Below, piece by piece: positions 5,456 to 55,355 of a stretch of DNA of 64,000 nucleotides. Each line of letters opens with the position of its first letter. Position 1 is the first letter of the stretch. Position numbers and translations under genes: made by a program. The stretch spans positions 15,903,037-15,967,036 of the forward strand of contig OZ316891.1 of assembly GCA_973895155.1 (NCBI GenBank). The letters run 5' to 3'. Under the pieces are notes generated by a model. That model made no database searches, was not told the DNA's origin, and saw only the letters and a program-made list of their open reading frames with translations. Source of the DNA: Marsupella aquatica. Lineage: Eukaryota; Plantae; Marchantiophyta.

Positions 5456-5595
5456 TTAATGGCCTAGTCCGTAGAAGATCAAACTTCCCATTAGCTTCCA
5501 TCAAATAATTGGTTGCTTTCTCATGAGCGGAAGCAGAACCAACCATATCTGCATGGCAAAATGCAAGCTCAAAATTGTTGGTCCTGTACCTCTAC

Positions 5596-7921: not shown

Positions 7922-8216
7922 GGGTATGACATGCGTGATAGTAAACAGGAAACAAGTTTACTGGTACTAGCAAAAAAATAATTTTACCAAAAAAATGACA
8001 ATGTAAAAATATTTCCTAAAAAATCACATTTTTCAACAAAAAAAATTATTGACAACAATTTTTGGCTAGCTTTGGGCGCTAGCAAAAAAAACAACTTTTT
8101 TTTCTACAAAAAAATAAAATTTTAAAATCATTTTTTTTAAATTACCACTCATTTTCCCGTTACCAGTTTCTGTTTCTTGTTACTGTTTGTTGTTTCTTGT
8201 TGTTTGTAAATACCCC
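7922..8216. mobile_element. MITE of the MULE-like family
   Basis: Termini GGGTAT.../...ATACCCC. Exact 8-bp TSD AAATATTT (7914-7921 and 8217-8224). AAACAG-rich subterminal repeats. Internal palindrome TAGCTTTGGGCGCTA at 8067. Confidence 0.8.
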
Positions 8217-8486
8217 AAATATTTGGTCGTTTGTTTTGTATCCGTTAGGATGTCTTTATACATGAAGACAAGCATAAAACTCTTTATATATTCCGTGAAA
8301 AAACATACACTAGATGTTAACAAAGATCGCTACCAAAATTGTCTTAGTATCTTAACCTAATTTACGCCCAACTAAAGACGTAGAATCTGTAGGTATCGAT
8401 CCTTATATGAATCTCACTCCTTTTGGTCGGGATCTGGACAAAACTTATCCAAAGAAGCAGACATTTCTTCATCCGGGACACCAGTT

Positions 8487-8923
8487 GCTCAACGGTATAT
8501 GTCTTGTGTGAAACCATGGTCCCTCCTCTGCCTAAATGCTCTACTTGGAGCTCTGTAGACAGGCCTTCGGCTGCTCCCGCTCGCAAAGTTAGAGTCCTGA
8601 AAATCAGGAGATCCCAACACCTTGTGCTTTCAAAGTTCTAGACAACGCGGCTAAACTGTGGCAGGATTGGAATGAACATGGAAGAAGAACCGATCTTTGA
8701 ATGGAAGAGCGGGCTCATCCCTGAGCCATGGAATGTTCCGCTCCCTTGGCCTCATTCCCTCACTCGATGGGAGGCTATTCCTATTTTGGATGTCTGAAGT
8801 GGTAGAAACATACGTCTCGGACTCGTGCTCTGTGGTCTCCTCTTCCTCTTCAATGGGAAATTTACCATTATTGGGCTTCATGTTCCGCAAACCATCCATG
8901 ACCAAAGATGAGTGTGACAACAA
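8487..8923 (-). pseudogene. Small orphan gene of the MULE-like family (copy 1)
   Basis: PALPFKDRF...NPATV*...GSPDFQDSN...DHGFTQDIYR aligns with PPLPFRERF...DPSNV...GHVNFSDSN...EDGFRQDEDR in 54049-54519. Confidence 0.6.
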
Positions 8924-15960: not shown

Positions 15961-18900
15961 TAGAGTTAGGAGTAGCTAAATTGGGCTATAGGGACAAGCG
16001 CCTGCCTAGTTAAAGCGGTGTTGCCATACTGTCCAGCCTACGTAGATTAGAATCTCCTAGAAGACAAGCCGTTTTCCAGCCTGACAGCCAGCTTAGTTAG
16101 GATCTTAGTTAGTGAATATTTGGGCTCGAGGCCACTCCGATCCTCGGCCCTTAGTATTTAGTGTACCCCTCGGTAGAGGCAGGAGGGGGGGTTTTTAGTC
16201 TCAGAGTTGGACATCCGCGGCATGTGCGGGGAGTCCTGACCTCTGTGAGTGAAAGAGTACCAAGGGGACGGGGTAGGACTAAGCTCACTGGGCAAGTGCG
16301 GAGCCAGGCTCTGTTGTAGTGTAAACCCTTGGCCTTGGACCTATTCATTCAGGAGTTTTCGGGTCAACCAAGTGTACGTGTATGTCCCCTATGTAGTAAA
16401 ATCCTTTCCCATTATTTCCTTCGTGTAAATCGAGATTGTATGCTTGTGTGTGTGCATATGTGTGAATCTTGTGTATGGGTGCCAACGCTTGGCCGAACGC
16501 ACTACCCGAGCCGTGCACGGGGTGCAACTTGCAGGTAAGTGGTTGCGAGCCCGGGTTGAGTAATCATATCATCAAATTCGGATCAAAGGCGCTTAACACA
16601 AAGGCTTAGAAGCCCGTAAGCCGGGGTCGATCCCGCTATCGACTAAGATACATTCCGGCGGTGAAACACAAACCATACCTAGGAGGTGTCCGTAAATAAT
16701 AGTAGACGCACATAGCGCTAGTTTACGTGAGTCCCGCATTCTGTGCTTCCCTCCCTGCCCGAACCCTCATATTTATGAAGGATGTGCCTGTCTAAGCCAA
16801 AGCCCGGGTTAAGGCCTAGGCTGACAACGTGACAGGCAGCCCTCCTACCCTAGGAAGATCGAACATTGCGCAAGCTTTTGGTTGGAGAAAGTATAAGTCT
16901 TTTCCCGGTACGTAATAAACATTCCCTCGGGTGACACTTACCTTCGTGATTCGTGAGCAGATTTCTCCTGCTTGAGATGTTGATAGATAGCGGTACATTT
17001 GGACCAAGCCGTAAATCCTGGCTCTATTAAGTACCGGTCAACTCTCCTCAATACATTGGACCTCCGTAATGGAGTTGCGGATCATTCTTCTCTTTGGCCG
17101 ACAGGGCTCCCTTCTTGTTCTTGGCCGGGGGGACCTCTGCTCTCCGTGGTCTGCCGTTTCCATTTTTGCTTGATGTAAGTGAGGAGTGAGTGGATGGTGC
17201 TTGTGATCGCCAAGTGTTCTCATAAGGGGGGGGGGGGGGGTTTGTCGAGTGTTCTAATGCGTTGTGAGACGTAAACTAGCCCGCCTTCCTGTCTTAAGCT
17301 CAAATGTGGAGCCTCTTTGGTTCATGGATGTCCGGGAGGGTGGGACGGTCGTTGTCTCATAATTGTGAAGTGCCTCGATTCAGCGGCTCAATTCTGACGA
17401 TCCTAATCATGACATTATTCTAGTGGCGCTCATGATTGTCCTTTTACTCATGACTTGGTAAAGGTACGGTACCTATCGTGATTGTGTACGTAGCTAGTTC
17501 CTTCGTTTGGCGGCGGTATCTTAAGTGCATATTATGGCTATCCTAACCGTATTAGGGTAATAATGGTGCTTTACTGAAAGAGACAAAAAAGATGGGGTCC
17601 GCACAAAGATTTGCAGGTTTGTGAAGAGAGAGCCATTCAGTTGAATATGCCGTGGTCTGATGTTGAGAGGAAAAGGCTTCATGATGAAAAGTTTGCCTTG
17701 CAGCTCAAAGAACAATCTGTCCGCAACAGTAAACTAGCAATTGTTTTGAATCCAGAATACAGAAGTTTTTTTGCCAAATGTTCAAAGTTGTATGAGTATT
17801 GCGAAAGGGAGAAGAGAGAAGGACGTCAACATTGGGATGTGGATTGGATTGGGCTCCAAATGTACACTGCTGTCTCAACTTTAGATCCACTTCTTCAATG
17901 TCAATCGATTGAGGCACAGTGTGAGCCAGAATTGAGGAAGCAATGGTTTCATCCAACGGGATTTTCCGAGAATGAGACCAAGCAGTGGTGTGCCACACAT
18001 GGTCCATGTGGTCATTGGTTGAATCCATTTCTAACCATTTGTTGATAGCCTGTTTGGATGAGATTGGATTAAGTGCTCCTCAGGATTGTTTAGAGTCAAC
18101 ACCTCAAAAAGATCTTGAATCTCTGAAGGAGCAGATCCTCGATGATTTCAAGGATTATGCATTTTGTGTGAGATCCAAGTCAAGTGACAAATTTGATGTT
18201 GATGTAATTCGTCAAAGGGCAAAGCGATATGTTTATCGTTTCTTTGTGGATCAAGAAATTAGTAGTGATTCGTATTTTTGGTGTTACCCCCTTTGTTTTG
18301 CTGGATGGGCAAGCGTTGGGCTAGATGCGGACGGGAATGTTACATATCCTCACTTTTCAATGTATCTTGCGGATGCTTCTCACCCCAAAAGAGACCTTAT
18401 TGCTTGGGAAGTTTTTAATTGTCCCTGGTACCTCGATAGTGATCAGTGGTCAACTGCTTTTGACCAAACGAAAAGATTGGCGTACACCAAGATTGTGAAG
18501 GGCAAGGAGCCCAAGTATATTTTGTCTATGAGATCAAATTTGGTCCAGTGGAGAAGGAAGAAAGGGCTTGTGCCTTGATGGAGGACGTATGTTTGAGGCA
18601 AGGTGTGAGTGTCGATCGCACTCAAAAGTCAAGAGTGAAAGTCGGGGTTCCTGAAAAGGCAGAGTCTCAAATGGTTTTTGCTTCTCAGTAGTCTCTCAGA
18701 ACAAGTAAGTATTGCTAGCGAACCTCGCTATCAAAATAAGTTATATTTGAATAATGTATTCCTGAAGTTTACATTCTGACCTCCCGGTGCTTTTTCAAAA
18801 AAGAGGCGCTCGTTGAGTTCACACAATCAATCGGGAGAGGAAGCCAGTCCAGACACTGATGAGGACGCATCTCCTGAGGAAACTAGTAAGAAAAGAAAGT

Positions 18901-19493
18901 CAAAGAAGGTGGCAGATTTGGGGAGCTCCAAGAAAACAAAGAAGAAACGTAATTTTGCTGACTTGGATGAGGAGGCCAAATTTGATTCAAGATTAAACTC
19001 TGGTTTGGAGAGGAAAGGAATAGAGTTTATTGCAGGGGATAATTGACATATTTTTCTCCAGTCAAGTTTGCTTGACTTGGCCAACTCAATTGTCAATCAA
19101 AGGAAGAAACCATCATGGGTTAGAGAGTGTGACATTTGGATGAAGAGTCTCTTGTCGAGAGGCCTTAGGGAATGTCCTATAGTTTTGGACAAAAAGTACC
19201 TTCCGGGAATAGGTTTTGATTTAGGTTTTGTCTATCTTCCTACTGGACTCTGTCCCCTCATTATTGACAAAACGGTTCCAGAGTGGAACATTTGGGACAA
19301 ATCCCTCCTAGCACATTTTTTCAATATCTACAAACAGTATCTTGCTGATAATGGATTCCTTGTTGTTCTTCATAGTCAGATTTTAATCACACCTCAGCCG
19401 TATATAGTGCAGCTCAAGCTCGTGGTTTTTTCAAGCATGCACAGTCGTACTCAATTTTGCTTCCAGCTCCTTTATGGAAACAAGGTTGGGATC

Positions 19494-19940
19494 AGTTCCT
19501 CCTTTGGGTCCTGACCCTCTTCCTCCAATTCAGCCTCTGAACCGTCGCCGCTTCCATCCGAGTCGAAGGTGTCATCATCCAACCCATCCTCTGAAGGATT
19601 GGCCACCTCCTTCCCTTTAAGTTGACAACGCTCTGCACTTGACGTGTTTGCTGCGGCGGTCGATGGTTTGGCCGCCAGGTCTTTGTTGTCCTACTTGTAA
19701 CGTTCGTCTAGGGAAGTTGATCGGTCCTCCTTCTGTTCTTCTTGAACTTGGGCTCTCCCCTTGGCGGGCCACTCTTTGATCAAGTGTTTTTTGCCATGTC
19801 CCCAACAACCAAATCTGCCCGCAGTCGACCCACCAGGCATGTTGAAGTACTAAGTCCCCACAAAAATCCATTAAGATTTTTGGATTCCGACTTAGCACAA
19901 CCCCGGCCCGGTGTCTATGCCAGCAATTGCTTTGATACCA
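19494..19940 (-). mobile_element. PBS and truncated gag start of an LTR retrotransposon
   Basis: GCTTTGATACCA (19929-19940) is TGGTATCAAAGC, a tRNA-iMet PBS, on the minus strand, 2 nt from the LTR end. Downstream reads MAKTLDQRVARQG. Confidence 0.65.
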
Positions 19941-20266
19941 CAAGTGGTGGACCTTGCCACCTAGCGCCCTCACCAATCCCAGCACCCACGCCTAAGTGCC
20001 CTTGGCAGCTCGCGAACGGCAAGAGCTCGCTTGACTGTGGGAACTGCAAAAGTCTGCCTTCCTAGGAGGAGAACTTATCAAGGCCAAGTTCTTGTGGACT
20101 TCTACTGCCAATCAGCTTGACAACCTTCTGTTCTGTGAGAACACTGTTCTGTGAGAACAGAATTATCGGCATCCGGGAAGCCATCAACCGCTGCAACGAC
20201 ATACATTGGGACCTAAAGGGTAGCACAAAGGTGTGGACAAAGGCAACCGTGCGCGGAGAAACATCC

Positions 20267-23328: not shown

Positions 23329-25169
23329 AGGGTGGACCCGGTCAGGCTGCGGGAGAGTTGACTCGGTCTGGGGCAGGTAATATGTCAAAAGACGGACCTA
23401 CAGCAGTGGTTGTGGAGGAAACATTGGGGGCGTCCATTGAGGATCAGCCACCGCTACCATGACGGTGGTGGAGGGCCGCTCCTTTTAAGGAGGACAGAGT
23501 GGAGGGAGGAGGCATGAGTGGGCAAGGCGGGCAAGTTTAGAATTAGGATAAAGACCAAGAGATGGCCTTGACACTTAGATTAGTGGGATTGCGGATCCAC
23601 TGGTAAGAGCAACACTTGTGTTCTTGCCTCGTTGTACATAGGTAAATTACAGTTAGGATAGATTAGGCTTACGCTGCAAGGAATTAGGCGGATCCATTGC
23701 CAGGATAAGTTCCTGGGCAACGGGGAGTTCAGGGCCTTCTTCTTTAGCAAGTTTTTAGTGCACCAGTAGGGTTGGGATCAAGTAGTAAAAGAAGCTCTCA
23801 GTTAGTTCTACAGTGACACTTTGTGTATATTCATGTTTCCTCATGCCTAAGAGCTGAATAGAGTTGGAATCACGGCTTAGTTCGCAGATCTTGTGTATGA
23901 GAAGTACTGTTTGTATGGCAAGTGCATGGTATAACTCAATCAGAAGGAGTCATTTTGCTATTTGTGTGTTGCATTAACTTGTTTGAAGATTGCCCACATC
24001 AACCAAGAGAGAAGGGAAGTAAGCAAGGTAGTAAGAGTTGGATGTGTCGAGCTGAGAGAGGTCTTAGCGGCTAACCCAAGCCAATTGGGGATCATTCTGA
24101 CGGCGAAATCCAAACATACCTAAAGGAAGACCAGGAGAGGAAGACAAGGGAAGGCATAAAATAGGTCGGCTATTTATCTCATGACCCGATGAAGGATCTG
24201 TCCAGTATATGTGTGTAAAATGTTAGTAGAAGAGATTTAGTAGCGTCCCATGCTGATAAGCCGTGGAACCGGCCTCGCTAAGAGCGAAACCTACGGGAAT
24301 CGGCTTGTGCAGGGGGTTTCTTGGGTTTAGGGAGCCATGGGACGCACCACACTAAGTCCTCCCCGGATGGCCTATCCGGGCTTGGACCATAAGGGAGCTC
24401 GGCGTCGGAGTCAATGACGCCGGAGCTAAGTGTCAAGGTAGTCGAGTTCCGCGACTCAAGGCCATCGTTGGTGTAAAGTAGGTGTAAGCGGTGACCAGGT
24501 TACATTGTAACCTTTCATGCCCCTTATGGAGATTCCACGTGTCACCAGGGCGCCTATCCTCATAAGACTCACGTTCTTATGAAGAATTGACAAGATCATC
24601 AATTTTTGTAGCCATTTTCCCCTCTCCTGAATTTGATCTGAAATGACAGCATTCTCTACTGGATTCGAACGGCAACAGGTCAGCCAATAGCCCAGCCAAG
24701 TTTGTAGCTGCCTTCTCAATCCACCTCCATAACCTCTAGCATTGCAGGTGGTTCAAAATTGCAGCCACAATTTTGCAGTAGCCATAGCTTCTATCAACTT
24801 GTAGCTCTTCCAGTCCTCTTCTTGCATAGTTTCAATTCACAGCAGCATGGATCTTGTTTAGTACTAGTGTTGGCTTTCTGATGGCACTCATTTTTGGCTG
24901 TCTTGGTAAGGGTTTTCTCTGCCCTGTCTTTTGCCTCTTGTTCTTAGAGCTTTTGTCTCTTAGATGGGCCTATGTGTTGGCTGCTTTTGGCCCCCCTTCC
25001 CGTGGGTTTTTGTGGGTTTTATTGAATTTTTAATTTTTTTTAAATAGCAACACGTGTTCCAATGCAAGGTGCTCAAAACCTTGCACCTATATGTATATTT
25101 TGTTGGCTGGGCAAAGGATGTCTTGGTGTAGGTTCTCACTCATCCAAATGAATGGAGAGTGAGCTTGGC

Positions 25170-26636: not shown

Positions 26637-29600
26637 ATGGAGGATGTGAGCTCCTTCAAGAGTGTGTTTACTCGTGCGGAAAAGAAAACAATCAAGTCTA
26701 AGGATGGCATGAGCGAGCCAATTGTAGCCTCCGAGGAGGCGCTGCAGCATGTAGTCATGTCGTCATATCGGAAGAAGCTAATTCAAGAAGTGCAGCGTAA
26801 GCTGCAAAAGGTAAACAGTCCACAACGCACTTCTCCTATGAAATGAATTAGTCTCGTGTCTTGTTGTCCTGCAGAATTGTCCGTTTGTCCGTTTGATTGT
26901 TGTGGCTACTCAGCGCGTCCAGTCTCCACTATACGCAGGATTTGTCGTTGAGATATTTTTGGTTGGAAGTTGTTTCATGTACGGTCGTAGTATCCTTTTG
27001 TTATCAATGATGATGATTGAGCGTCATTATTGAGAATTCTGAAAATCGGTTCTCCGGACTTAATCAATAGTCTTGAAGACAAAATCGATGTATCAGACTA
27101 TCTTTCCTTGCAAATGCCTGAAGATTGACGGAGCTCTTGAAAGCTTAAAGGACACTTATTCTCTTAACCTGTTCTGAGGATTGTGCTACTTTAAATACGT
27201 GCCTGAAGTGTAGCCCTAGTCTTAGCAAGGAAACTGCAATTACAAATGAACTGCTGAAGATTATCTAGCAACTGTGTATGAATCTATACTGAGCTACTCT
27301 GAACCCGGAAGATCTGGCCGTTTGTCTCGTCAATGCTAGCCAAATCTGAGTTTGCTAAGAGCTTGCCGAGCAGCCAAGGACATAGGAGAGGATAGGTAGA
27401 AAGCTGGCTTCAGGGCTCAGCCTCGCTTCACGGCTTGAAAGTTCATAGCAATTTCATTTTCCGACACCTGTGTTTTGGTATTTTGCAAGTTTTCCTTTAT
27501 GTTAGACTTGCCAGATTTCTTTCTGAAAAAATGGTATATGAAGATGCTGCTTCCTTTCTTCTCTAGCGTTTTGGTTACAGAGTTGATCATTGTACTGGAA
27601 ATGTGCCTTGTAAACTAGCAATGTAAATGAACCCTATCTGGCCAATGGAATTTGAAACATCACTATTTTGGATTGACAGGCAGTGGATCTACCTTCTCAG
27701 CGAGGGGATGTATTGCATCAGCTTTTCACTGATATTGCACTTGAGGTGGATTCTCGAGCTAAAGGTAAAGCTCTTTTTCTGGCTCGTTTTTCTCTTTCCT
27801 TTGAGAAATTGGGTATCTTGCTGTTTCTATGGATGGTTACATCAATTTCCGTTGTCCCTAACGGCTGTGTTGTCTTACTAAATTCCTTTTGGGAATTCCC
27901 TCCGCTAGGAGCGTTCTCCAAAATTCTTGGATTACTGAGCTGGGACTATTATTCTGTATTTTTTTTTAATGTAGTCTAACCTGTTCCTGTCTACAGTACA
28001 GCCGTTGTGTATTTCCGTCTTTGTCCCTAAGGCCTACGGTTTAATATGGAATGGTCGTGGGCACATTTTGGCAGCACGACTGTATAGTGAAGAGAACTTT
28101 GAGAGTCCCCGACAAAGAGACAGAGAACACCCTCTTTGCTTTTATGAGGTTCTAGCGGAGCATTATGCTCGCATTCCAGGTGATGGAGATGCAGCTCTTG
28201 CATTGTTTGTGAAGCTGTGGAGCCAGTCTCTGGCCGCTCAAATTTTCACACTTCTTTTCCATAAGTGGGTGAGTCCAGTTTATCCGCGCATTCATTGGTC
28301 TACTAGACATTTTATGATGATTTGAGTGTGCCATATGCTGCTGGGGAATAATGCTTTGAAATAGTTCTGTCGAAGTGGGACTTGTGTGTTTATGGCTTTT
28401 CCTCAATAAGACGTCAACGGAATTATGAACTAATCGTCATTTTAAATAAATGAAGTGCTGCCACATAATTTGATTGACCTTGATCTTTCTTTGGACGCTC
28501 TACTGGAGGAAGTTGTTTGAAGTACCGACAGAAGATTCAGATGGATATTTACGTTATTCTACAGCATTTGTTGAAGGTGCCAGTACCATATTCTGGTAAT
28601 TTCTTTTCCCATTGGACATTGTGTAAATTGATGTGACCTGTGAAAATTCAGTGTCACTGGTTGTACGAACTACTTTCCCTAGTACTTAGACCCGGATCGT
28701 ACTTAAATTTGAAGTAATTAAAGTGTTACGGACCTTGTGAAATTAAAAAGAATTTACTGAAATGATTGTAAATCAATGAAATAGAACTGAGATGAAATAA
28801 AGGCAGCCCTTGTGGGTTCTTCGGCAGGATCTGAAAGTAACAATTGCTCCACCAACTGTAGACCTGTGTAATCTGCCGGGTATGCCATAAATAAGTAGTG
28901 GTTGGATGCACCACGCAGTAGACCTCGTTATCCTCTCAGAGGCGGCTCTTAGTGTGTAGTCCTGTACGACTGAGTGAGAGCTCAACCACAGTGCCTGTTT
29001 TATCGTCTAGGGAGGAGAGGTCTGTGTCGGTGCCCTTTGCTAACAGGTCACCAGCAGGTTACAAGAGACAAAGGTATTAGATTATCCTTCATGAACAGTG
29101 TCGCAGCGGAGTCGGTAAGTGCAGATACAGACAAAGAATCAGGTACATCACCAAAAATGGAGGTATGGCAAATCCTACTTCTCCGATACAATTTAAAAAA
29201 TATGTTTCCAGAAGAGTGTCATGTAAACCTGACCAAACTAATCCTTGCTATTGGGTATCAGAAGATGCATCAAAGTGCAAGGGCTACCCAATTATAAGTG
29301 CTAAAAGCATTCTAGATGTCCCAATCAATAAGAGATGATGATCAGGCCTGACATGTTCATTTGAACCTGATGATGCCAGAAAGAAAATCAGGAGAGAGTT
29401 ATGATCAGAACTGTATGGTCTACTCTGAGAATTTCACGTTACTTGCTGGCCAAAAGATCGCTCGAAAGGCAAAGGAATTTGTCGGAAATTTTTCTCTGAA
29501 TATAGCATAAATGAGAATTCACTCTACTCATCACCCAATTATTGTAAGGATAAGAGTAGTGGGTTTATGTTCCTTTTCATGGTTGGATATGCAGGATTGA

Positions 29601-36903: not shown

Positions 36904-37213
36904 AACACAACCAGTCATAAACAGAACAGATCCTATTTTTAACAGTAACAAAAGTGCACATTCATGTTTGTGGCAAAAGCAACACAACCAGTCATAAACA
37001 GAACAGATCCTATTTTTAACAGTAACAAAAGTGCACATTCATGTTTGTGGCAAAAGCAACACAACCAGTCATAAACAGAACAGATCCTATTTTTTACAGT
37101 AACAAAAGTGCACATTCATGTTTGTGGCAAAAGCAACACAACCAGTCATAAACAAAACAGATCCTATTTTTACAGTAACAAAAGTGCACATTCATGTTTG
37201 TGGCAAAAGCAAC
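36904..37213 (+). repeat. 77-bp tandem repeat x4, near-identical
   Basis: Units start at 36904, 36981, 37058 and 37135. Confidence 0.95.
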
Positions 37214-37449
37214 TTAATTTTTGGGGTGTCATACCGTAAATATTAAACGTAAAAAAACCAGAATACAAAGGAAGAGGTGTCATTTAGTAAAATAAAGTTA
37301 CCATTTGTCAATGATATATCAATGTTTTACATCAAAATGCTTGTATTTTTAATTGTTTGCAAGTTTAAAAACATAACCAATTGATAAAAATGTACATAGT
37401 TAGAACCTCTTTGGCTCCACATTGTAAAACTAAATAATCAATCTCCTTA

Positions 37450-37915
37450 ATACTAGATGAAATTTGTCAATGTTTGATTCATTGGAAAGCTCAAGATCAA
37501 GAAACTCATGAACTCTTTAGTAATGTCTTGATAAAATTTCTCAATGGCACACTCATTGGAAAGCTAGAGTAAAATTAGAAACTCATCATCTTCTTAGTAC
37601 ACAAAATCTATCAATGTTAGGTTCATTGGAAAGTCAAAGAAATTTGGATACTCATGATCTCTCTAATTCTTGACGAATACTCCCAATGGCACACTTTAGA
37701 AAGCTAGAGAGATTGAAAATCTCATGATCTCCTCAGTACCGTGACAAAATCTGACATGAAATTTTTCAATGTTGGACTCAATGTTGGAAAGCTAAAAAAA
37801 CTCATGAACTCATGATCAAAATTTCTTATTGTCACACTCATTGAAAATGCCAGGAAATTCAAAAACTCATTTGGAATTTGACAAAATTTGTCAATTTGAA
37901 ACTCATTGGAAACTC
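37450..37915 (+). repeat. Degenerate ~70-bp tandem array, about 7 units
   Basis: Recurring CATTGGAAAGCT...AACTCATGA core near 37480, 37555, 37624, 37697, 37783, 37839 and 37904. Confidence 0.7.
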
Positions 37916-38927: not shown

Positions 38928-40410
38928 AGTGGTGGACCTTACCACCCAGCGCCCTCACCAATCCCAACACTCACGCCTTTGTGCCCTTGGTGCCCGAACG
39001 CCTCTACGGAATACCTCAAGCAAGCAACCTAGTGCCCCTTGCACCGCCAACGGCCCCTCCCATACGAAGCCGCACTTGCTCTCTAACACGACCGCTACTC
39101 AACGGTCCTCCCTATCTGCACAAGCAACCAAGCACCTCGGTAAGTAACCCTTTAGGATCTAGAACTCGCCAAGTCTAGCATCCTAACTCAAGCTCAATAG
39201 ACGTTGGTAAATAGGTCAGCGATAGGTCCTCTCGATGCCATAAGCCGGAACCAGAGCCCGCGCCCACTGTTCGTCCAAAACAGCTCCTTCCTTGGGCGCG
39301 GCCCGGGTACCCCCTCGTACCTATCCATCACCAACTAACCGTCCTGACCTCAGGACATGCTCATGGCCCAAATAGCGTAGCTTGTCCTAAAGGTTGTCCC
39401 AACACGTCGGGACCAGAACGGCCCCGACTCTAGTAACCGCTCCCGGTTCGCCCCACTGGTGGTCTAGGGGCCGAGCACCCTTGGAACTCAGCCTCCACAC
39501 CTACTTGGCCTTGCCTCCCCAATGCAAGCTCCCTTGGAAGACTGAACACGGCTTGGTTGCTGTTCGGCAAGATTTGGCAAGCGGGCGAGCTAACACCCGC
39601 AAACCACGAGAACCCACGGCACCCTCAGACCCAGATGAGCTCAGGAGGGCGTATCCCTCTTCAAGAGCTTTCCAACGCACCTAAGAAGTCCTCCAACGGA
39701 CTTCCCGTTAGGAAGATATCACCATTTCCATTTGACCGTTTCCCTTAGTGTCGCGACCGCCGCGGCTCACGATTTCGGCTCGCCCTTAGCCCCCAGAGAG
39801 ACACCACTCCCCTCATATATGCTTCTGGAGACCTGCCACCCCCGGACCAACTTTGGTCCCTAAACATTTGGCCCCCAACCCGGATCCCATCGCGCATAAT
39901 GGGCGCGCCACCAACTGGCAACGCCCATAACTTTCTTGATAGGCATCCGCAAGCGGAGTGCCTTAGCTCATTGTGACTGGGCCAACCCAGTGCTCATGCC
40001 TGGGCCCTCAGGTCTGATTGCCGCTCGGGATCCCCGACCGGCCCAACCCGGATTGGGCCACAACTTACGCCCCAAGCGTCCTTTGCCAATGGCGTCAACT
40101 CCATTGGCCTTGGGCCCAAGAGGAGCTCACTCCCAAGCCCTCACAACTCAAAGTCCATCCGGAGGTCCGGACGGCCATCATTGAGCCCGGCCCATTTTCC
40201 CTTGACCCGACCAGCCATAGGCTAGTCCAAGTCCTTAGTGTGTGCCCCCAGCTTGGCTCCTTGCCTCGCTAGACCCACGTCTCATTGCCCACAAGTCTCC
40301 CCATGCTAAGTCCTCCCCTGATGGCCTGTCCGGGCCTGGACCATAAGGGAGCTCGGCGTCGGAGTCAGCGACGCCCGAGCTAAGTGTTAAGGTAGTCGAG
40401 TTCCGTGACT
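38928..40410 (-). mobile_element. Solo LTR with AGT...ACT termini
   Basis: Exact 5-bp TSD GTTTA (38923-38927, 40411-40415). Inverted homolog at 46080-47539. Orientation taken from the PBS at 19929. Confidence 0.85.
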
Positions 40411-40515
40411 GTTTACCTTGGACTCTTTGAGTGAAAGAGTTAATGTTTGTCCAGGTTAGCAGTTTGGTGGTGGGTGTGTAAGTTAGTTACCACCTAAGTT
40501 CTTTACTAGCATCAC

Positions 40516-44396: not shown

Positions 44397-44733
44397 GGGT
44401 ATAACCACCGTGCCAGGAAACAGTAAAAAGGAAACAGCAAACTGTAAACAGTACACAGCAAATGGATGCAAAATTTTGATTTTTTTTGAATTATTTTTTG
44501 GAATTTGTTTTTTGGAATTTGTTTTTTGGTTTGTATTTTTGACATTTTTTTACTAGCGCCCCAAGCTAGTAATAGTAGCGTCTGGCGCTAGCCAAAAATG
44601 ATCGTTTTAAAAAATATTTTGAAATTTTTGAGTTTTAATGAGAAATTTTTTATATTTCATTTTTGCTCGTAACAGTAAAATTTTGCTCATAACAGGAATC
44701 ATTTTCCTGTTTCCTGGCACGGTGTAAAGCCTT
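44397..44733. mobile_element. MITE of the MULE-like family inserted in the copia pol
   Basis: 18-bp perfect subterminal IR CACCGTGCCAGGAAACAG (44406-44423, 44707-44724). 8-bp TSD GTCACGTG. Left end GGGTATAACCACC identical to 47938. Two TAGC-N7-GCTA sites. Confidence 0.88.
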
Positions 44734-46079
44734 GTCACGTGCAATGAAATGAGATCCACCAGCTTCTAGAGCACCCAGGGAACCCAAATTCTTAAAGATG
44801 TCTGGTATGTGCCTCAGTTGTGTTAGTGCTAGCACAACACCATCAAACATCCGGAGTGATAGTCTCCGTGCCAACGATCGCACATCGGACACCATTTCCA
44901 ATTTCCACAGTACCAGTACATTGGAGAAATACAATTGCGTTGGACACACGCAATAAGAGGAACCTGAATCCAACATCCATTTATTGTCATACACACAATT
45001 CACAACACAGATACATAGCACTTCAGTGGTATCCTCATTTTCAGCAATCACAATCCAGCTGATGAGGAGGACGCACCATTGGAAGCAGGATACTTCTCCT
45101 TTGACAAAGAAGGATAATTCCACTTGGTGTGGCCCTTCTCATGGCAATGCCAACACTGAATTTCTTGCTACGGGACTTAGATTTAGATCTACCTTGAGAT
45201 TTGGATCTAGACTGGTCTGTAGTACGCTTTGTTGATCTTCCTCTAACCATTAAGGCAGTAGATTTATCTCCACAATCAAAAAGGTGTTGCTTGCTCCATT
45301 CTACAAGAACGGTAGCCTTCACCATATCCAATTTCAACGTAGTCTTGTCATGTGTGATGACTGTTACCAATGTCAAAAAACTCTTTGGAAGTGACATCAA
45401 CAAACGCATGGCAAGATAGTCATTGGTCAACTTATCTCCCACCGTGGTCACCTCGTGCACAATCTCATCAAAGAGACTCAAATGATCATGCATGTTTCCA
45501 CCATCCTTCCACTTCAACTTGAACAACCACTCCAACTGATAAATATGAGTCAATAGTCAACAAAGTACTCCCGTATGGCTGAGTAAGCATTTCCCAGATC
45601 TTCTTGGCATTCCGATCCATCCCCAACACGTTCTTGAGAATGTTGTTGGCCAAGACCAACTCAATTGTACTACACGCCTGCACCAACATGTCTTCCCACT
45701 CCTCATCTGCTAGAGTCAAGGGCTTCACTCCAGTGACGGTCTTCTCAAGGACCTGCTAAATCAGCACGTTGGTCACCTTCCAAGTCTAGAGGCTAAAGCT
45801 GACTTTCCCGTCAAACTTCTCCACCTCAAAATTTGACGCTGCAAGCTTTTGTGAAGCCATGGATGCTTCCTCAAACACACAGGAAACACAAGTAATAAAC
45901 GACCTCCACTCAAAAATTTACCAAAATTGAGAGTTGGCAAATTTGAGTTCTAAATGCACTAGCGTAACCAATTTTTTCAAACTGACTTTAATAAGAAAGT
46001 TATTGGCAAAAACATTTTTCGGTTTGCTCTTGGTTCAACCCTACTTAGGATCACCCTTGGGGCGAGGTTGCTTCAAGTC

Positions 46080-47539
46080 AGTCGCAGAACTTGACTACCT
46101 TAACACTTAGCTCCGATGTCGCTGACTCCGACGCCAAACTCCCTTATGGTCTAGGCCCAGAGGACTTAGCATGGGACGACTTGTGGGAAATGAGACGTGG
46201 CACTGGCGAAGGCAAAGCGCCAAGCCGGTGGCACACACTAAGGACTTAGGCTAGCTGAGAGCTGGTCGGGTCAAGGGGAAAAAGGTTGACCATCCGGACC
46301 CCCGAATGGACTTTGAGTTCTGAGGGCTTGAGTGTGAGATCCTCTTGGGCCCAAGGCCAATGGAGTTGACGCCACATGTGGGCTACGGATGCTTGGGGCG
46401 TGAGTTATGGCCCAATCTGGGTTTGGCTGATCGGGGACCCCAAGCGGCAATGAGACTTGAGGGCCTAGGCATGAGCATTGGGTCGGCCCGATCACAACGG
46501 GCTAAGGCACTCCACTTGCAGACGTCTAACGAGAAAGTTATGGGCGTTGCCAGTTGGTGGTGCGCCCAGTATGCAAGATAGGGTCCGGGTTGGGGGCCAA
46601 AAGTTTAGGGACCAAAGCTGGTCCAGGGGTGGCAGGTCTCCAGAAGTATATATGAGGGGAGTGGTGTCTCCCTAGGGGCTAAGTGCGAGCCAAAGTCGTG
46701 AGCTGCGGGGGTCACGACACTAAGGGAAAATGCCAAACGGAAACGATGATATCTTCCCAACGGGAAGTCCATTGGAGGACTTCTTGGGTGTGTTGGAAAG
46801 CTCTCATGGAGGGCTAAGTCCTCCTAGATCAGCTAGTTCTGGGGGCACCATGGGTTCTTGAGGTTTGCGGGTGTTATCTCGCCCGCTTGCCAAATCCTGC
46901 CAAAACAGCAGCCAAGCCGCATTCAGTCTCTCAAGGGAGTTGTGTTGGGGAGGCAAGGCCAAGTAGGCATGGAGGTTGAATTCCAAGGGCACTTGGCCCC
47001 TAGACCATCAGCAGGGCGGAAATTGGGAGTTGATTGCTAGAGTCGGGGCCATTCTGGTCCCGGGGCGTTGGGACAACCTTTGGGACAAGCTACGCTTTTG
47101 TGCCATGACATATCCTGGGGTCAGGGCGGTCAGTTGGTGATGGATAGGTATGAGGGGGAACCCGGGCCGCGCCCAAGGAAGGAGTTGTTCTAGACGAATA
47201 GTGGGCGTGGGTTTTGGTTCCGGCTTATGGCGTCGGGAGGACCTATCGTTGACCTATTTACCAATGTCTATTGAGCTTGAGTTAGGATGCTAGACTTGGG
47301 AGTTCTAGATCCTGAAGGGTTACTTACCGAGGTGCTTGGTTGCTTGTGTAGACTGTGAGGATCATTGAGCAGCGGGCGAGTTAGAGAGCAAGTGCGGCTT
47401 TGTATGGGAGGGGCCGCGGGTGGTGCAAGGGACACCAAGGTGCTTTCTCGAGGTATTTCGTGGAGGCATTCGGGCACCAAAGACACTTAGACGTGGGTGT
47501 CGGGATTGGTGAGGGCGTTAGGTGGCAAGGTCCACCACT
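46080..47539 (+). mobile_element. Solo LTR with AGT...ACT termini
   Basis: Reverse-complement homolog of 38928-40410. TSD AAGTC/AGGTC with one mismatch. Confidence 0.82.
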
Positions 47540-48396
47540 AGGTCACTATCAAAAACCCTTTTACCTTAGTTTATTGTTCACTTATGAGGGGCCCACCTAT
47601 TGGCCTTATCAGAGTATAACATGTGCCGCTATGAGCACGGTTGAGGTAGATTCTTAATCCCAATCTTATCACTCAAAAATCCGTGCTTAGTTCTTGACCA
47701 ACCAAAAAATAATTTGATCTACACGATTGATTGCCCGGATCCAACAATCCCCAATTGTATCAAAAAACCACAACATTTGAATGTAGAAATACACAAGAAT
47801 TGTGGCACCGGTTGGAGAAAATCCTCTCCCAAACTTAGCTAACTACAAATTGTAAAGGTTTAACAAGCTATACCTATCTTAATACAACTCAATTTTGGTC
47901 AAAACGACTCGCGACAAGGTGCTCAACCATGGATTTTGGGTATAACCACCATGACAGCAAATAATAAATAGATTTGCTGTTATGAGCAAATTTTTTGCTC
48001 GTACGAGCAAAAATTTACTCATATGAGGAATTCAATTACTCATAGTAGAAAATCTGTTTACTCATACAAGAAACTATTTACTTGTACAAATTTTCTAGGT
48101 TATTCAAAGTTGACAAAAAGGGCTCCATGTTAAAAAACAACAACCATATAAGCGCTCACTGAAATGCTACTCACAATGGGGCCCACCATTCAATGATAAA
48201 TAACAGACAATATAGAGGTCATTATAAGAAGATGCGCTTTATTTCACAGTCAATATATTTGCTATCTGTTGCAAATTTTGGCTAGCGCCTGGCGCTAGCA
48301 ACAGACACTACATATTTTTGGATAAGAAACGGGTACATCTTCTGCTCGGTAGAAAAGACAAATGCCACTTAAAGTTGTTGAACGTCACCAAATTGA

Positions 48397-49350
48397 CTAC
48401 ATGTCCATTTCATTTTGTCGATCAAGAAGGTAACGGACTTCGCCCAATGTCAAAAGTGGTTGACTAGATAGTGTCAAATCGTGAAGACTCAACTTCAACA
48501 TAGTCCTGAATACCCAATATAGATGTTTGCAAGGCATGTAAGGTTTCCTATAAATGTGCCCCCGATAGAAATCCTCACATGAACAGCAAGGGAAACAACA
48601 AATCTGCACCCAATAAGAGGTACAGTCCTCTCATGTTCATGTGTTCTGATACAATACTACTTCCCCCACGCATTCGCACTCGTGACATCTCTCTCACATA
48701 CGAGTCTCATTACTTCTGTTTTGGATGCTTCGATCTTCTTGTAATGTGTTTGAGTTAGATTCACTCTCTGCAAGCACTTCCTTCCATTCTTGGAGCCACA
48801 TCTGAAAATTGGGTCCGCTAAATTGATCCTCTCTTGGAACAAATTCACATCGATGCGTAACTCAGACGGGGATGGCTCTTGACCTTCCCTTATCTCTCCT
48901 GTCCCAATTAGACCTTGTTCTCTCAAGAATTGGATCTCGCCCTCCTGGAGATTGGTCCCTCTCGCAATGGGAAGAACGGGTGGTATATTGGGAATGTTTG
49001 AAACACCTCTTCTTGGCCAAATTTTGTAACATTTGTTGTTTGGGCAAAACCATATCTGGTCTGGATGAGGTTCTCCTCTAAAAAGTCTACATCCTTTTAC
49101 AAATATTGCGACAACTCCTTCTACGCACGTTTAGGATCGTTGTCAATCATTCGTCCATATCGGTACAGCACCACAAAAAACGTTGTATCACGCAAGAAGC
49201 ACGTTGAGGTGCGGGTTCCCCGTGTGTGCATCTTAAACAAACATGGAGAATCATTCTCCTGGCCATTCTGAAACATCCGAGTCCTCATTCTCCGGATCAG
49301 TTTATTCTCGGAGAGTCACTCGTTCGTCTGCGTCAAACTCTTTGTGAAAC
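48397..49350 (-). pseudogene. Cys-rich / SWIM zinc-finger gene (copy 2)
   Basis: IWFCPNNKC and SWIM signature CSCEDF...MPCKHLYWVF (CxC...CxH). Frameshifted; start approximate. Confidence 0.78.
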
Positions 49351-49386
49351 ATTAGTCAGTCGATTCCAAAGCCAAAACAAGGCATC

Positions 49387-52300
49387 ATGGAGTCATACGG
49401 AGATTTTGCGATGGAGGACGGTGGCGAGGGAGTCCTGTCCATGGATGCTGTGATCAAGAAATACGCAATGTCATTTGGAGTCGATTTCAGAGGGGAGAAG
49501 AAAGAGCCGCCGCGTATCCCTCTTTGTCGGCTTGTTCACATGGAAATCGTTCGGACTTTATAGAAAAATAGTGCATCTATCGATAAGCTCAAGGATTCAT
49601 TTCGGAGCTCTGGGTACAACGCTTCAATTGGGATGCGGTTTTACATCCAGCCCACGGATTCAGAAGGAGTCGTTCAATTCTGCACGCCTGAAATTCGGGA
49701 GACATGGGATGCTGTTTGGGTTGCCCAGAATGACTTGTTTGAAGCAGAATGTGCTACTGATCCAGATTTCCACATTTTGAAGGATAAGATGTTCTGTGTT
49801 TTTGACGGGAATCATCGACTCTACTCGTGGACCCAAGTAACAAATGAGAATCCAGACAATATCAAGTACCATCCGCGTGTTCAATGCACTGTTTTTAAGG
49901 GAGATCAGGGTTCTCTAGTTGAGCTTGAAGCGGCTATGCACACGGTGAACCAGTAAGTATTCCTCAAGTTGCATAAACGCTATTGAATTTGGTCGATTGC
50001 GCTTGATTTTTGCAAAGTTAGTTATGGCCAGGCGCTAATATTTGCCATTATACCTTACAGGTTAGGGCAAGCTGTGGTGAAACCATCGTGGATTCTCGAT
50101 GCCGGTAGAATCAATCGGATTTTAACTCATGACTTGGAGGCCTACAAGCCGATCATCGACCCCGGAAGCTTCAAGCGATTTCAAACTGTTCATGCCAAAA
50201 CAAGAAAGGGGTCTTGGTATACCAAGCAGATGCCATTGGAAGCATTGGTTTACATCTTGTGTGAAAACAAGATTAAGTCGTATTCACTTCAATTTAAGCT
50301 TGACTTGGCTGATGCGACAAGTCAAGGTCGCCCGTGGTCATCTGAAGAGACTGGTAAGCGGTATGCTGCCATGATGAAGGAGGCAACGAAGGAGTGGAGC
50401 ATAAAGACATCCAAGATTACCCCCCTGATAAGCCCAGAGTTTGGTGATTTTCTGTCAACTTGTGCAGAAATGTACGTTCTTACGGAGAGGAACAAACGAG
50501 AAAAGAAGCCGGACTCTATAGTATGTACAATGGACCGCGCGCATCTATTCACTGCTGTCTCCTACTTGGATCAACAACTGCGCTGTACTCTTCTTGTTGC
50601 TCACTGTACACCCAAGCTCATAAAACAATTTTACCATCCCCCGAGTGTGAATGATGACCTTGTTAAACAGTGGTGTCATACATGGCACATGTGGAGTTTG
50701 GTGGAAGGAATTGCAATTGCAATGTTACAGACATCTCTTTCGCAAGTCCAGTCGATCCTACCTGCTGATCGTTTGACGCTAGGAGGAGTGGAGACGTTTG
50801 AAGCTTTGGTCTTGAACATCACCAATGATTTCAAGACATACGGTGAAACAGTGAAGGCAAAGTTTTTTAGCACAATTTGGCAGTCCAAGTACGGAGACAA
50901 GGAAGACTATACCATTCGCAACCAGAAGCGAGCCAAGAGATATCTGTATCGCTTCTACATGGCGATGGAGACCAGTTCTCCAAAGTATTTTTGGGCTTAC
51001 CCTCCTGCATTCCAAGAATGGTCCGTTCTAGAGGGGGATGAGTTTAGCAAAGTTTACTCAATGTACCCTGCCGAAGGGGACGTTCCACCATGTGACATTT
51101 CATTGTGGGAGATAACCCACTGTCCATGGTATCTTGACACAGATAAGTGGGACACCCCTTTCGATGAAGCTGAAAAGGATGCATTTCTGAAATTATCAAA
51201 GTCTTTAGTCCCTCGGAAAGTTCTCTCTGAAATGAAACAAGGTTTATCGGAAGATGTAGATGCCTCGGCGAGCAAGCTGTAGAAACATTGCAAAACAGAA
51301 GTTTTGCATGTAGACAGGAGTCGAAAACCCCGGGCGAAAGCAAAAGTAGACACTGGAGTAACCAGCCCATCAACGAGATCCGGGAAGAAACGTGAGATTC
51401 TTCTATTTTTCATTGGCATTCCGTATTTTCCCTTCACCAGTTTGGATATTTAGGTGTCTTTTTGTTTAGCGCCACAGATGTTGGTGTCCATTTATTTCTT
51501 GATTTTTGTGCAGTTTGGTTAGCGCCCGGCGCTGGTGTTATTTTCCATTGGCATTCTGTATTTTCTCTCCACCAGCTTGATTATGTCAGTGACTTTTGAT
51601 GAGCGCTGCAGATCAAGTTGTCTATTTATCGGTTGATTTTGTGGGCAGTTTGGTTAGCGCCCAACGCTGGTGTTATGTGGACCGTAATCTTGGAAACTTT
51701 TGTTTCATTTTCTAGGTGGACGGAAATCGGATGGAGAAGAAACACAAGATGCAAAGACGACAATCACTCCTGGAGTCTCTGAAGCTGATACGGGGGAACA
51801 AGATGTCCCTGATGAACAGACTCCTCCCAACACGGAGAAGATGGTGCGACCTGCAGATGCCACCAGCACGAAGAAAAAGAAATCTTTGGATCATGGATTT
51901 TCCTCTCGGGATTCAGTCGCTTCTATTGGTGTTCAACGAGATGTTGGACAGTTCAAGTCTAAGACTTCTAGGCATGTTTTTGTTGAGTCCAGCGTAATGG
52001 ACTTCTTTGAGAGTGTGTTCATGAAAGAGCATAAACCGGCTTGGGTGTCAAATGTGGAGAAGTGGGTGAAAGACCTAGTCTTGCTTGGTCTAAGGGAGAA
52101 AGGAGTCATAAGAGGAGGGAAGATAAGATCATTTGGAGTTGATGCTGGATTTGTTTACCTCCCAACTGGACTGCGCCCTTCCCTTTTAGAGAAGAAGTCT
52201 CCAAAATGGAATTCCCCAGATCACAGAATTGTTGGTTCATTCTTTCGCGCAATGGACCCCTTTCTAGCAGATGATGGTATATTGGCCATTTTGCATACCG

Positions 52301-53587
52301 GCGAGTATGATCAGATCTCGCAGGTCATCGCCGCGAGCCAGGAGTCTCAAAAGTTTCAGTGTGTGAAAACCCTGAAGTGGTTATGGGAGTTCCAATGTAC
52401 ATGGCCCGAAGTGATTGCCAGGTAAATTCTCTCACTCTTCGTGCTGTCCTTTGTTAGCGCCGAGCGCTAGCTAAAAATGTTTTCATATACCTTTCGGTTA
52501 AGGGGATATTCTTTGTTAGCGCCTGGCGCTATCCAAAATTCATTGTTATGCCGTGATTTAAATGATTTTCTGGTTGGATCGTCGACATCTTAACAATGGA
52601 CTTTGTTGGGATTTCATAGGTTTTCACATTGAGATTGGATCTGTTCAATCGTGTTTCGTCAAAGGTTAAAGTTCCAAAGGACCCCAAGTTTTGACCCCTC
52701 TCTGCAACTGAAGATCCTTCTATCACTAACCTTATTGGTCTCCCGAGTGTGAGGAAGGATCCAACTCCTTCAGCAGCGTTTGCTGGCAATGGACGCTTGT
52801 CCGTTGGGTTCATGCAATCTGTGTTAGAGTTAATCACTCGGCCGGGTGACATTGTCATGGACTGGACTGTGGGTTCGGGAAGTACATTTGTTGCTGGTGA
52901 CTATTGTGGTTGTTTTATTCTTGGTATAGAAAACCGAAAAGAGTTGTTGAGATTGCGGAAAAGACATGGATGGATTTATTGATTCCAAAGGATGTCAGTT
53001 CCTCATCTCCCGCTAAAGATGTGGGAAGAAAACAAAAAGATAAAGTTCGCTCTGTCTTAAATTTTGACTCTGAAGATGAAGAGGATGGAGATGCTGTTGG
53101 AGATGATGCTTCAGGAGGACAAGGAGAGGAAAATGAAGGAGACGAGAAGGAGAGGCATACGACGGAAGAAACATAAGATTCAGATTCTTCTGAGTAATGC
53201 CCGTAAGCTACTTCACTTTATGTTATCGATTCTGTTATTGTCCCATTTTCATTTTCAACTCTAATATGGTTCCGTTCCTTTTCCAGATCGGAGTGGAATC
53301 TTCAAGAATGTTTTAATCTTTGGAGGAAATACTCGAGAAAAGTTCTCGTTTCTCCTCAAAAGCCTTTCGTGTTGCCCTCGTATGCAGAATATGCTGCACG
53401 CAAAGAAGAACAGAGGAGAACACTTACTTGGGAGAGTAAGGGCTTAAGGTTAAGAAGAGGTTCAGATAGGAAATTCATCCACCAGCCTTTACTTAACGAT
53501 GGACCTAGAAGCGAATTTATAGATGATGAAGCTGAGTCTACTGATAGGTCTGGCAGTAGCGAGTCCGAGTCTTCTGACTTCGAATAG
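49387..53587 (+). pseudogene. ParB/Srx-like domain fused to a beta-class N4C/N6A DNA methyltransferase fold, about 5 exons
   Basis: Exons 49387-49952, 50061-51391, 51716-52421, 52620 to about 53202, 53287-53587 (GT-AG). VFDGNHRL at 49804. VDAGFVYLPTG at the motif IV position. LITRPGDIVMDWTVGSGSTFVAG...ILGIE as motifs X/I/II. Stops at 49561, 51280 and 52692 plus at least two frameshifts. Confidence 0.82.
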
Positions 53588-54048
53588 GTTGAGTGGGAAT
53601 TTCTAAGGTTTTCTTTGGAACCTTGTACTAGCGCCCGACGCTATTAAACAGGGTGTTCGGATCTGAGACTTTAAAGGAGATAGACGCACCGGGAGTCTCT
53701 TTCCTGAGTGCATATTTGTGCAGATATCAGAACTGCATGTACTCGTACAGTTGTATGGTGAATAATTATACCTTCAGTCTGTACATATTTTTGTTTGTGG
53801 TTGATATGATCGTTTGGACTCTCTCAAAGTGTAGTGTTTGTTCAACTTCGGGATTGTTCAACTTCGTGATTGTTCAACCCTAAACTCATTTCTCCCTTTC
53901 ATTTCTGTTAGGCGCTGACTCTCCTCTTCACTTCATTTCGTTTGTGCACTGCCCAGACTCACCTCTTCCCTTCGTTTCATTTCTGGTCTGCCCGGACTCA
54001 CCTCTTCTCTTCTCCCTGAGTTTTGCATCCGTTGTTTCCATCGACTCA

Positions 54049-54519
54049 ATGGATAAGGGAAAGCAAATAGCGAAATCGGAGAGCTGCAATCCGCCAAAGG
54101 CGATGGTTTGGAGGTCAATTAGAGATCCAGGTTTAGATTTGACTCCATCTTTTACGCAGTGCCCAGAGACGTCGACCAAGAGGAACAGGTTGTGGCTGGC
54201 CCTGGATGAGGGTATTAGCCACAGAACTGGACACCTTCCATCGCGTGATCCTTCGCCTCCACTTCCTTTCCGAGAGAGGTTCTCTGTTCACGACCCGGAT
54301 CCTTCCAATGTGTATCGGGTGGAAAGGACAGCTTTTTTCAGAGACATCCAAGCAGACACCGGACATGTGAACTTTTCAGATTCGAACATCCCGAACGACC
54401 GGAGTCGGAGTCGCTATCCCGGACCTCATTTTTTTCTGGATCGAGAGGATGGGTTTCGACAGGATGAGGATAGGTTCAAAGCTGGATTGGACGACGACTG
54501 CATGTCTTCTACTTCCTAG
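54049..54519 (+). CDS. Small orphan gene of the MULE-like family (copy 2), open frame
   Basis: MDKGKQIAK...; homologous to 8487-8923 (-). Confidence 0.55.
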   Translation: MDKGKQIAKSESCNPPKAMVWRSIRDPGLDLTPSFTQCPETSTKRNRLWLALDEGISHRTGHLPSRDPSPPLPFRERFSVHDPDPSNVYRVERTAFFRDIQADTGHVNFSDSNIPNDRSRSRYPGPHFFLDREDGFRQDEDRFKAGLDDDCMSSTS

Positions 54520-55355
54520 AGAGTGTGGATTTCTTCTTCGACACTAGCGCCAGGCGCTAGCTTTCATCTCATCTTTGGAGTCGTTCATGAGTTTGATTCA
54601 TGTCATCTTTTTGAATGGGGGCTCCGGTTCGGCCGAGTTAGCTTTATTCCTTCCGTTTTATTATCGCATTAGGTTTTTTGAGAATGTTATTAGGGTTATT
54701 TCTTTTTCTCGAAGGTTATGGACTTTTATTACCTTCTGGATATCAATGTAATTTCTTTTTCAAGTAGCGCCTATTGCTAGCGCTTGGTGCTACTATTATA
54801 TGTTCCATTCTCCTCCACAATTATGTAAACCCGCCTCTATAAAATTGTGTCTTTCATCTTTTTTTTTTCTAGTGTCCTCCAAATATGCTGCGAATACTAT
54901 TAGTGGCTCTTTTATTGTTGAAATTGGTTGTTTCCTGTTACTGGAATCGGGTTCCTGTCAAATGGAAAGCCCTCTGACAAAATGATCTTTAAGCTTCATC
55001 CGATGTATTCGGTCTTACCGAGCCAGCCAGTTTTGAATGTCGAAGAACTCCAGTTCATCGTAGGAAGGGAGAATCTGCATGGTTCATTCAATGATACGTT
55101 GAATGGACATTTTGTTAATGTTGTTTTGAACGGCAACAAACTCTTGGTTAGCGCTCGGCGCTAGTAAAACTTGTCTTTCCATAATTACTGTAGAGAACGC
55201 TAAACATATTGGAGTTCCTATTGAAATTGGCCTCCTTTTTTGTCCAAAATTATGTCATCTTTTGTGTATGCTAGTACCAATCTCCTGTTTTGTTCCTCTC
55301 TTTTTCCTGTTATGATTGTTACTGTTTTCTGTTTCCTGTCATGGGGAAAAACCTC

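Follow-up and report, generated by a model that had tools for sequence, protein, structure and literature searches.

An apparently undescribed family of beta-class pseudo-methyltransferases on a multi-copy element of the liverwort Marsupella aquatica

Active C5-methyltransferases reportedly occur in retrotransposons, and amino-methyltransferases (MTases) of the beta-class fold have also been taken up by eukaryotes. Marchantia MpDN4MT1a/b (TSPPY) and the rotifer N4CMT (SPPY) are host genes of low copy number that encode active enzymes, and passages of bioRxiv 2021.02.12.428880 and PMC8885841 describe these active eukaryotic relatives as keeping canonical motifs. A transposon-borne, PCIF1-like MTase domain is found in DIRS1, where, according to a passage of PMC4738411, all copies are likely inactive. 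Here we describe a long gene found by tblastx in two copies within a 64,000-nucleotide stretch of the liverwort Marsupella aquatica (GenBank assembly GCA_973895155.1, contig OZ316891.1, positions 15,903,037 to 15,967,036; hereafter the window), together with its relatives. It appears to belong to an undescribed family of beta-class pseudo-MTases, under selection and carried on a multi-copy element. Like the beta-class MTases M.MboIIA, M1.HpyAVI, CcrM, M.RsrI and M.PvuII, the family has the predicted fold, the motif order IV to X-I-II and the residues of motifs I and II; unlike them, it reads xLP(T/N) at motif IV, has introns and a remodelled motif X, and is extended by a long N-terminal part and by a tail that is acidic. 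With MpDN4MT1a/b and N4CMT it shares the fold class and the uptake by a eukaryote. As in DIRS1, the domain is apparently borne by a transposon; the DIRS1 domain is group-2, non-permuted and part of a retrotransposon polyprotein, whereas the beta-class domain described here belongs to a spliced gene of its own, with DDE/SWIM-like genes as neighbours. No description of the family was found in the literature; supplements were outside the search, and that of PMC4738411 could list such proteins.

The VANDAL group of Arabidopsis Mutator-like elements (MULEs) carries an extra gene, VANC, whose anti-silencing product binds dense short motifs in the non-coding parts of its own element (passages of PMC5735166), and these motifs differ between subfamilies (parts of PMC5735166 and PMC6446971). 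SWIM fingers and extra antisense open reading frames (ORFs) are described as common in MULEs in part of PMC6446971. The present locus, on a probably Mutator-like element, resembles VANDAL in its extra gene and in short motifs in non-coding parts. With its weakly ParB-like start it also resembles the phage fusions of ParB and a beta-class MTase, in which a ParB-like domain stands ahead of N6_N4_Mtase: gp24 and gp25 of Acidithiobacillus phage AcaML1 (L002:334-3149) are adjacent genes of this kind (ParB_N + N6_N4_Mtase), ParB-Tls loci are comparable, and a passage of PMC4738411 states that phage ParB-terminase loci encode MTases. The annotated phage MTases are compact, whereas here about 500 residues separate the two domains. 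Origin of the gene from such a fusion is plausible.

The window is repeat-rich eukaryotic DNA with what we take, from recognised motifs, to be copia-like debris and debris resembling long interspersed nuclear elements. Copy 2 of the gene spans about 49393-53587 in five exons, which encode a weakly ParB-like start, a middle region of about 400 residues, the pseudo-MTase and a conserved acidic tail, in that order:

49393 to 49952, plus strand: exon 1, ParB/Srx-like, with VFDGNHR and an in-frame stop at 49561; start approximate
49953 to 50060, plus strand: intron 1 (GT..AG), which holds one palindrome, degenerate, at 50023
50061 to 51391, plus strand: exon 2, the middle region, with a stop at 51280; 35-51% identity to copy 1
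51392 to 51715, plus strand: predicted intron 2, with palindromes at 51520 and 51655
51716 to 52421, plus strand: exon 3, a basic/acidic linker and then the N-half of the pseudo-MTase, with a frameshift near 52376
52156 to 52167, plus strand: YLPT at the position of motif IV (DPPY)
52422 to 52619, plus strand: intron 3 (GT-AG), within the MTase domain, with palindromes at 52455 and 52517
52620 to 53193, plus strand: exon 4, which has a stop at 52692 and a frameshift near 52943 and encodes remodelled motif X, motif I, motif II (IGIENR) and an acidic stretch
52860 to 52886, plus strand: motif I, DWTVGSGST, in exon 4
53287 to 53587, plus strand: exon 5, the conserved C-terminal tail, 48.5% identical to residues 538-605 of P0046

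From the end of the middle region onward this gene model is confirmed, because P0046, a protein of 643 residues from the liverwort Calypogeia fissa, is collinear with it: the end of exon 2 pairs with its N-terminus, and both MTase halves across intron 3 and the tail follow in order. The exons flanking intron 3 also join in register with the relative P0040. For the ParB-like exon, splice signals and the arrangement in copy 1 are the grounds for attaching it to the gene. The middle region has no Pfam or PHROG match. A sequence-only reading of this DNA had placed one MTase at 51960..52960; the domain is there, but as two halves in separate exons and not as one ORF, parted by the frameshift near 52376, intron 3 and the stop at 52692. 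Its positions for YLPT and DWTVGSGST, as well as for the YLPT of copy 1 (19233-19244), were confirmed. Copy 2 carries three stops and two frameshifts in all and is a pseudogene. The frameshifts are not common to most copies, since contigs of run X1 have one extra base at 52376 in all aligned depth and all four runs have one extra base at 52943 in at least half of the depth.

The C-terminal piece of the domain matches positions 168-218 of Pfam PF01555 (N6_N4_Mtase) with E 6e-6, and the best PDB sequence match of the exon 4 piece is M1.HpyAVI (E 3e-4); the N-half has no Pfam match. For profile-profile alignment by hhalign, eight phage/plasmid beta-class MTases were chosen by similarity to the C-terminal part only. 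Against these, the whole family domain places ADMGFIFLPN on VDAIITDPPY (P=99.4), and the family N-half alone still places xLPT on DPPY (P=84.7, E 6.6e-6). Thus the permuted beta-class order that the sequence-only reading had proposed is present, with the catalytic half before the half that binds S-adenosylmethionine (SAM), and the alignments show YLPT in register with motif IV (DPPY) of beta-class amino-MTases; the first of the two refuting conditions set for the sequence-only reading is thereby decided in its favour.

An AlphaFold2 model was built for the full-length relative P0014 from an alignment of 44 rows. Its mean pLDDT (predicted local distance difference test) is 69 and rises to about 90 (above 88) in the surroundings of the motif, itself located at the end of a strand. 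Foldseek ranks CcrM first (E 3e-7), with M1.HpyAVI and M.BceJIV, and VIA-align against 48,161 chains gives M.MboIIA (Z 12.3), M1.HpyAVI (12.0), CcrM (11.7), M.BceJIV (11.5), the rotifer N4CMT (8s9n, 10.9) and M.PvuII (10.6). By entry, the model aligns with 1g60 at Z 12.3 (173 aligned, root-mean-square deviation 4.0), with 1boo at Z 10.6 and with 1eg2 at Z 9.8; the top 20 rows hold only beta-class or MT-A70 MTases (Z 7.9-12.3). These comparisons show the fold of the predicted P0014 model to be that of a beta-class amino-MTase; they give a fold match without residue pairing, and the register of YLPT comes from the profile-profile alignment. A fold of the window N-half predicted from two sequences was discarded (pLDDT 41), neither the N-half profile nor the 44-row profile found more than noise among PDB sequences, and GPP34 clusters from an Atlas search with the N-half were rejected, all scores being below 0.85.

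The question is then whether the non-canonical motif IV belongs to the family or to two broken copies. Starting from the two-copy alignment, an exhaustive HMMER search retrieved 43 hits; P0032 was removed as a tandem-repeat false positive and P0042 stops short of the motif. The 44 sequences counted comprise both window copies, P0046 and the remaining 41 hits. When the search was repeated with the 44-row profile, it gave seven hits among 7140 candidates, of which only P0046 and P0047 were new; P0047 reads APPT and lies outside the count of 44. Position 1 of the motif is A in 14, Y in 13, F in nine, C in three, S in three, T in one and R in one; position 2 is L in 37, position 3 is P in 42, and position 4 is T in 33, N in six and other residues in five. 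There is no D or N at position 1 and no Y, F or W at position 4 in any of the 44, and the canonical (D/N/S)-P-P-(Y/F/W), with position 2 allowed to vary, is absent from all 44. The change at position 2 is unremarkable, because DIPY and DVPY occur in the bacterial beta-MTase set. As aligned, the positions lost, 1 and 4, are the catalytic ones.

Predicted domains that are uninterrupted also lack DPPY/SPPY, which decides the second refuting condition, a canonical motif in intact members, likewise in favour of the sequence-only reading: P0014, P0046 and P0008 read FLPN, and P0040 reads ALPT. The substitution thus predates decay, as had been proposed, and the aligned family shows the loss of a canonical motif IV to be family-wide and not a product of decay. 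In a tree of 40 of 45 rows (five short rows omitted; midpoint root, which does not give the order of events), an ALPT clade (n=12, support 100/94) stands against a mixed clade (n=28). The Tyr codon of YLPT is unaltered in all aligned depth of runs X1, X2 and X5, and minor C>T and G>A changes reach the P, T and G of the motif in the runs. Every species-named relative is from Calypogeia fissa (five of the 30 hits looked up, and P0046), which makes six paralogues. A word-index search for longer proteins matched none of 419 candidates with the MTase N-half and none of 1685 with the middle ORF and retrieved no full-length fusion, which is weak evidence; locus scans of viral and metagenome contigs found no family member, and 10 loci from a degenerate motif scan were dismissed as chance, with a tblastn match in none of the 10.

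The sequence-only reading had called the SAM-binding motif intact. This holds for motifs I and II; motif X is remodelled. All six full-length rows keep the same D, W, G, G, G, E and R in motifs I-II, and each of them has the D-x-x-x-G-x-G of motif I and an acidic motif II, and the similar DFTMGSGS and DPCAGSGS occur in phage MTases with a canonical motif IV. In motif X, HPTxKP is replaced by GxxR(L/M/V)(S/T)xGF in 5/5 rows, with loss of the Lys. R196 is likewise invariant (5/5), and a conserved VPxWNxWD loop follows motif IV (W 37/43, N 39/43, W 38/42), where the bacterial profile also aligns a WD.

Between copies 1 and 2, five segments differ at a proportion of 0.68-0.82 of silent sites (pS), which are near or at saturation, and at 0.34-0.45 of amino-acid-changing sites (pN). 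pN thus lies below pS, and purifying selection acted between the two copies. FVYLPTGL is identical over its eight residues in copies that are 40% identical; on its own this identity is borderline, and the motif is kept beyond chance because 5/8 codons differ silently and P stands in 42/44 family sequences.

The gene exists as many dispersed, diverged copies. Four runs (three organisms) hold 216, 180, 35 and 7 contigs of mixed identity; the 216 of X1 fall in four identity bands, and numerous copies share 95-99% of their sequence. One contig each in X1 and X2 omits about 202 bases over intron 3 (52429-52632), probably from copies that have another intron there or none.

An insertion of about 6.7 kb between 10922 and 17640 interrupts copy 1, which is cut at about 19495 and retains only the motif IV half. 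It points away from the gene at 4200-7679. Its parts and the genes beside the two copies are:

10126 to 10922, plus strand: 5' part of copy 1, the ParB-like exon and the start of exon 2, 46-57% identical to copy 2
17650 to 19495, plus strand: 3' part of copy 1, the middle region and the MTase N-half with YLPT, ending before motif I
4200 to 7679, minus strand: divergent gene next to copy 1, in broken form, taken for a probable Mutator-like transposase; it shows Cys/His clusters, DDE-like SFD...FMAD...DAFH (6056-6580) and a C-terminal SWIM-like finger
48397 to 49200, minus strand: remnant of a divergent SWIM-finger gene (CSC...CKH) adjoining copy 2, 34-70% identical to genes at 2789-3640 (plus) and 4354-4907 (minus)

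The remnant beside copy 2 has no Pfam hit, and we take it to be SWIM-like from its motif. A third SWIM-like fragment at 2789-3640 (plus) is 58-59% identical to it and convergent with that of copy 1.

The DGNHR motif of the ParB-like exon is present in both window copies. The exon matches PHROG 1033 (ParB-like) weakly (E 0.012), and its Atlas matches score 0.93-0.95, one cluster having ParB_N on 11% and DUF3723 on 92% of its members; it has no Pfam ParB match and no significant phage tblastn match.

The non-coding parts around the gene carry a palindrome, TAGCG-N5-CGCTA, flanked by TTTTG...CAAAA. It occurs 13 times in the window against 0.09 expected (one pattern), and a looser pattern gives 16 matches against 0-2 in 30 shuffles:

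48283 to 55163, unstranded: 11 palindrome copies around copy 2, all in introns or spacers
8067 to 9484, unstranded: copy-1 variants between the divergent genes, at 8067, 9246, 9348 and, weaker, 9456

None of the 11 overlaps coding sequence, which makes up 67% of the span (P 4.5e-6). Copy 1 has a further variant at 18716, in a stretch matching intron 2. Since this non-coding motif outlasts the saturation of silent sites, it is likely a protein-binding site, a candidate whose binder could be the pseudo-MTase protein or a transposase. In intron 2 the palindrome is part of a 135-bp tandem duplication (51404-51676), as though it could increase in number through duplications on the spot, and two palindromes at 44554 and 44576 lie inside a copia-like retroelement, perhaps in a small inserted fragment or a derivative of miniature inverted-repeat type.

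On balance, we think that the gene family, of which copy 2 is one pseudogenised member among many, would encode an accessory protein that binds SAM but has no catalytic activity, serving a transposon that is probably Mutator-like. The family protein probably does not methylate bases, as we infer with good confidence because changing SPPY to APPA, at the same two positions, abolishes the activity of rotifer N4CMT (a passage of PMC8885841). This agrees with the earlier suggestion of a pseudo-MTase, which the family-wide absence of a canonical motif IV supports. Motifs I and II would fairly likely still bind SAM, whose part as a cofactor would be structural or allosteric. The gene would very probably ride on a DNA transposon. 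Beta-class MTases act as dimers, and we tentatively suggest that the protein, probably a dimer as well, may recognise the palindrome and, with its ParB-like domain, coat the element, shielding it from silencing or aiding the transpososome in a manner similar to VANC. A more specific version, which we regard as unlikely, is that liverwort DNA transposons took up and disarmed a phage-type ParB-MTase fusion, which would load as a self-recognising clamp at parS-like intron palindromes, from which it would spread and protect the element from host methylation.

Several points weigh against this account. Ser stands at position 1 in 3/44 sequences, and DLPT (GAC) is read in one of 18 X3 contigs (depth 15.7 of 706.8), though its position 4 is T. 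The homologues are for the most part single exons that may have decayed; only six rows extend to motif I, four of them from one species, and the searches were seeded with YLPT sequences, so that a canonical sister clade could escape. The assignment of exon 1 as a ParB/Srx-like domain is weak. On the side of the element, the gene at 4200-7679 is presumably Mutator-like in its anatomy, with no Pfam MULE or SWIM match and no PHROG or informative plasmid match; the linkage to a transposase-like gene is seen in this window only (two copies); and no terminal repeats or target duplication were recognised in the window repeat scans, both copies being broken by retroelement-like insertions. A MULE would be expected to have inverted repeats at its ends and a target duplication of 9-11 bp, although some MULEs lack these or keep them in degenerate form. 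The palindromes could be transposase sites or unrelated small repeats, and they are spaced, unlike the tandem non-palindromic motifs of VANC.

Neutral decay of a captured bacterial MTase, amplified from a dead master copy, would fit the three stops and two frameshifts of copy 2 and the many copies that are 95-99% alike. It is largely refuted and hardly credible, for FVYLPTGL is kept between copies saturated at silent sites, long-branched clades still share xLP(T/N), and other copies are without the frameshifts of copy 2. A neo-functionalised enzyme would bind SAM and pass the methyl group to a substrate for which the acid and the aromatic of motif IV are dispensable, for example the side chain of a protein or an atypical position on a base. 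The invariance of motifs I-II in 6/6 rows, T or N at position 4 in 39/44, the new VPxWNxWD loop and the invariant R196 speak for such an activity; with a position 1 that ranges from Ala to Tyr, the Lys of HPTxKP lost, and the equivalent double change killing N4CMT, we consider it quite unlikely.

The sequence-only reading had also raised a methyl-mark reader. In such a protein the emptied pocket, lined by the WNxW loop, would bind a flipped N4-methylcytosine (4mC), N6-methyladenine (6mA) or 5-methylcytosine and let the element sense or mask host methylation. The tryptophans after motif IV are conserved, the palindrome holds CG sites, and Marchantia sperm is described in part of bioRxiv 2021.02.12.428880 as rich in 4mC from the TSPPY enzymes. 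The data nevertheless lean against a reader: the free variation of position 1, which is Ala, Cys or Ser in 20/44 and Tyr or Phe in 22/44, is in keeping with a pocket without a fixed ligand and fits one ligand poorly, and the WD of the loop, aligning also with the bacterial profile, may be structural. We hold this reading improbable. Decidedly improbable, in our view, is a METTL14-like inert subunit that would pair with an active amino-MTase of the host or the element and steer or block it; inactivity is described for METTL14 and for the second domain of fungal clade-4 MTases (a passage of PMC4738411), and the fold matches include chains of METTL3/14 and MTA1, but no partner was identified, and the plus-strand frames of either copy hold no canonical motif IV, the single regex match lying in intron 4.

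If the preferred account of a non-catalytic accessory protein is right, and the protein acts like VANC, it would be a second independent case of sequence-specific protection from silencing evolved by a transposon, and possibly a targeted-epigenome tool; were the clamp version true, the element would own an anti-silencing system independent of VANC and made from bacterial parts. The palindrome, as candidate target sequence, makes the function directly testable. The family sits in a plant lineage of which one model species uses 4mC, and annotators should keep genes of this kind out of any tally of active 4mC/6mA writers.

Other features of the window were noted in passing. A small ORF downstream of copy 2 at 53944-54519 (plus), containing RDPSPPLPFRERFSVH, resembles by eye one near copy 1 at 8651-8932 (minus), containing RDEPALPFKDRFFFH, and is possibly a third gene of the element; it has no Pfam hit, and the likeness is absent from the filtered tblastx. 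Inverted repeats of 1.5 kb at 38928-40411 and 46079-47539 are 84.5% identical and probably are long terminal repeats of related retroelements, of which short pieces lie at 19942-20005 and 24352-24456. At 36904-37213 and 37424-37915 lie tandem arrays with a 77-bp period (98% identical) and an adjoining array that is more degenerate, and an ORF at 27975-28325 (plus) looks like an exon of an ordinary host gene among the repeats.

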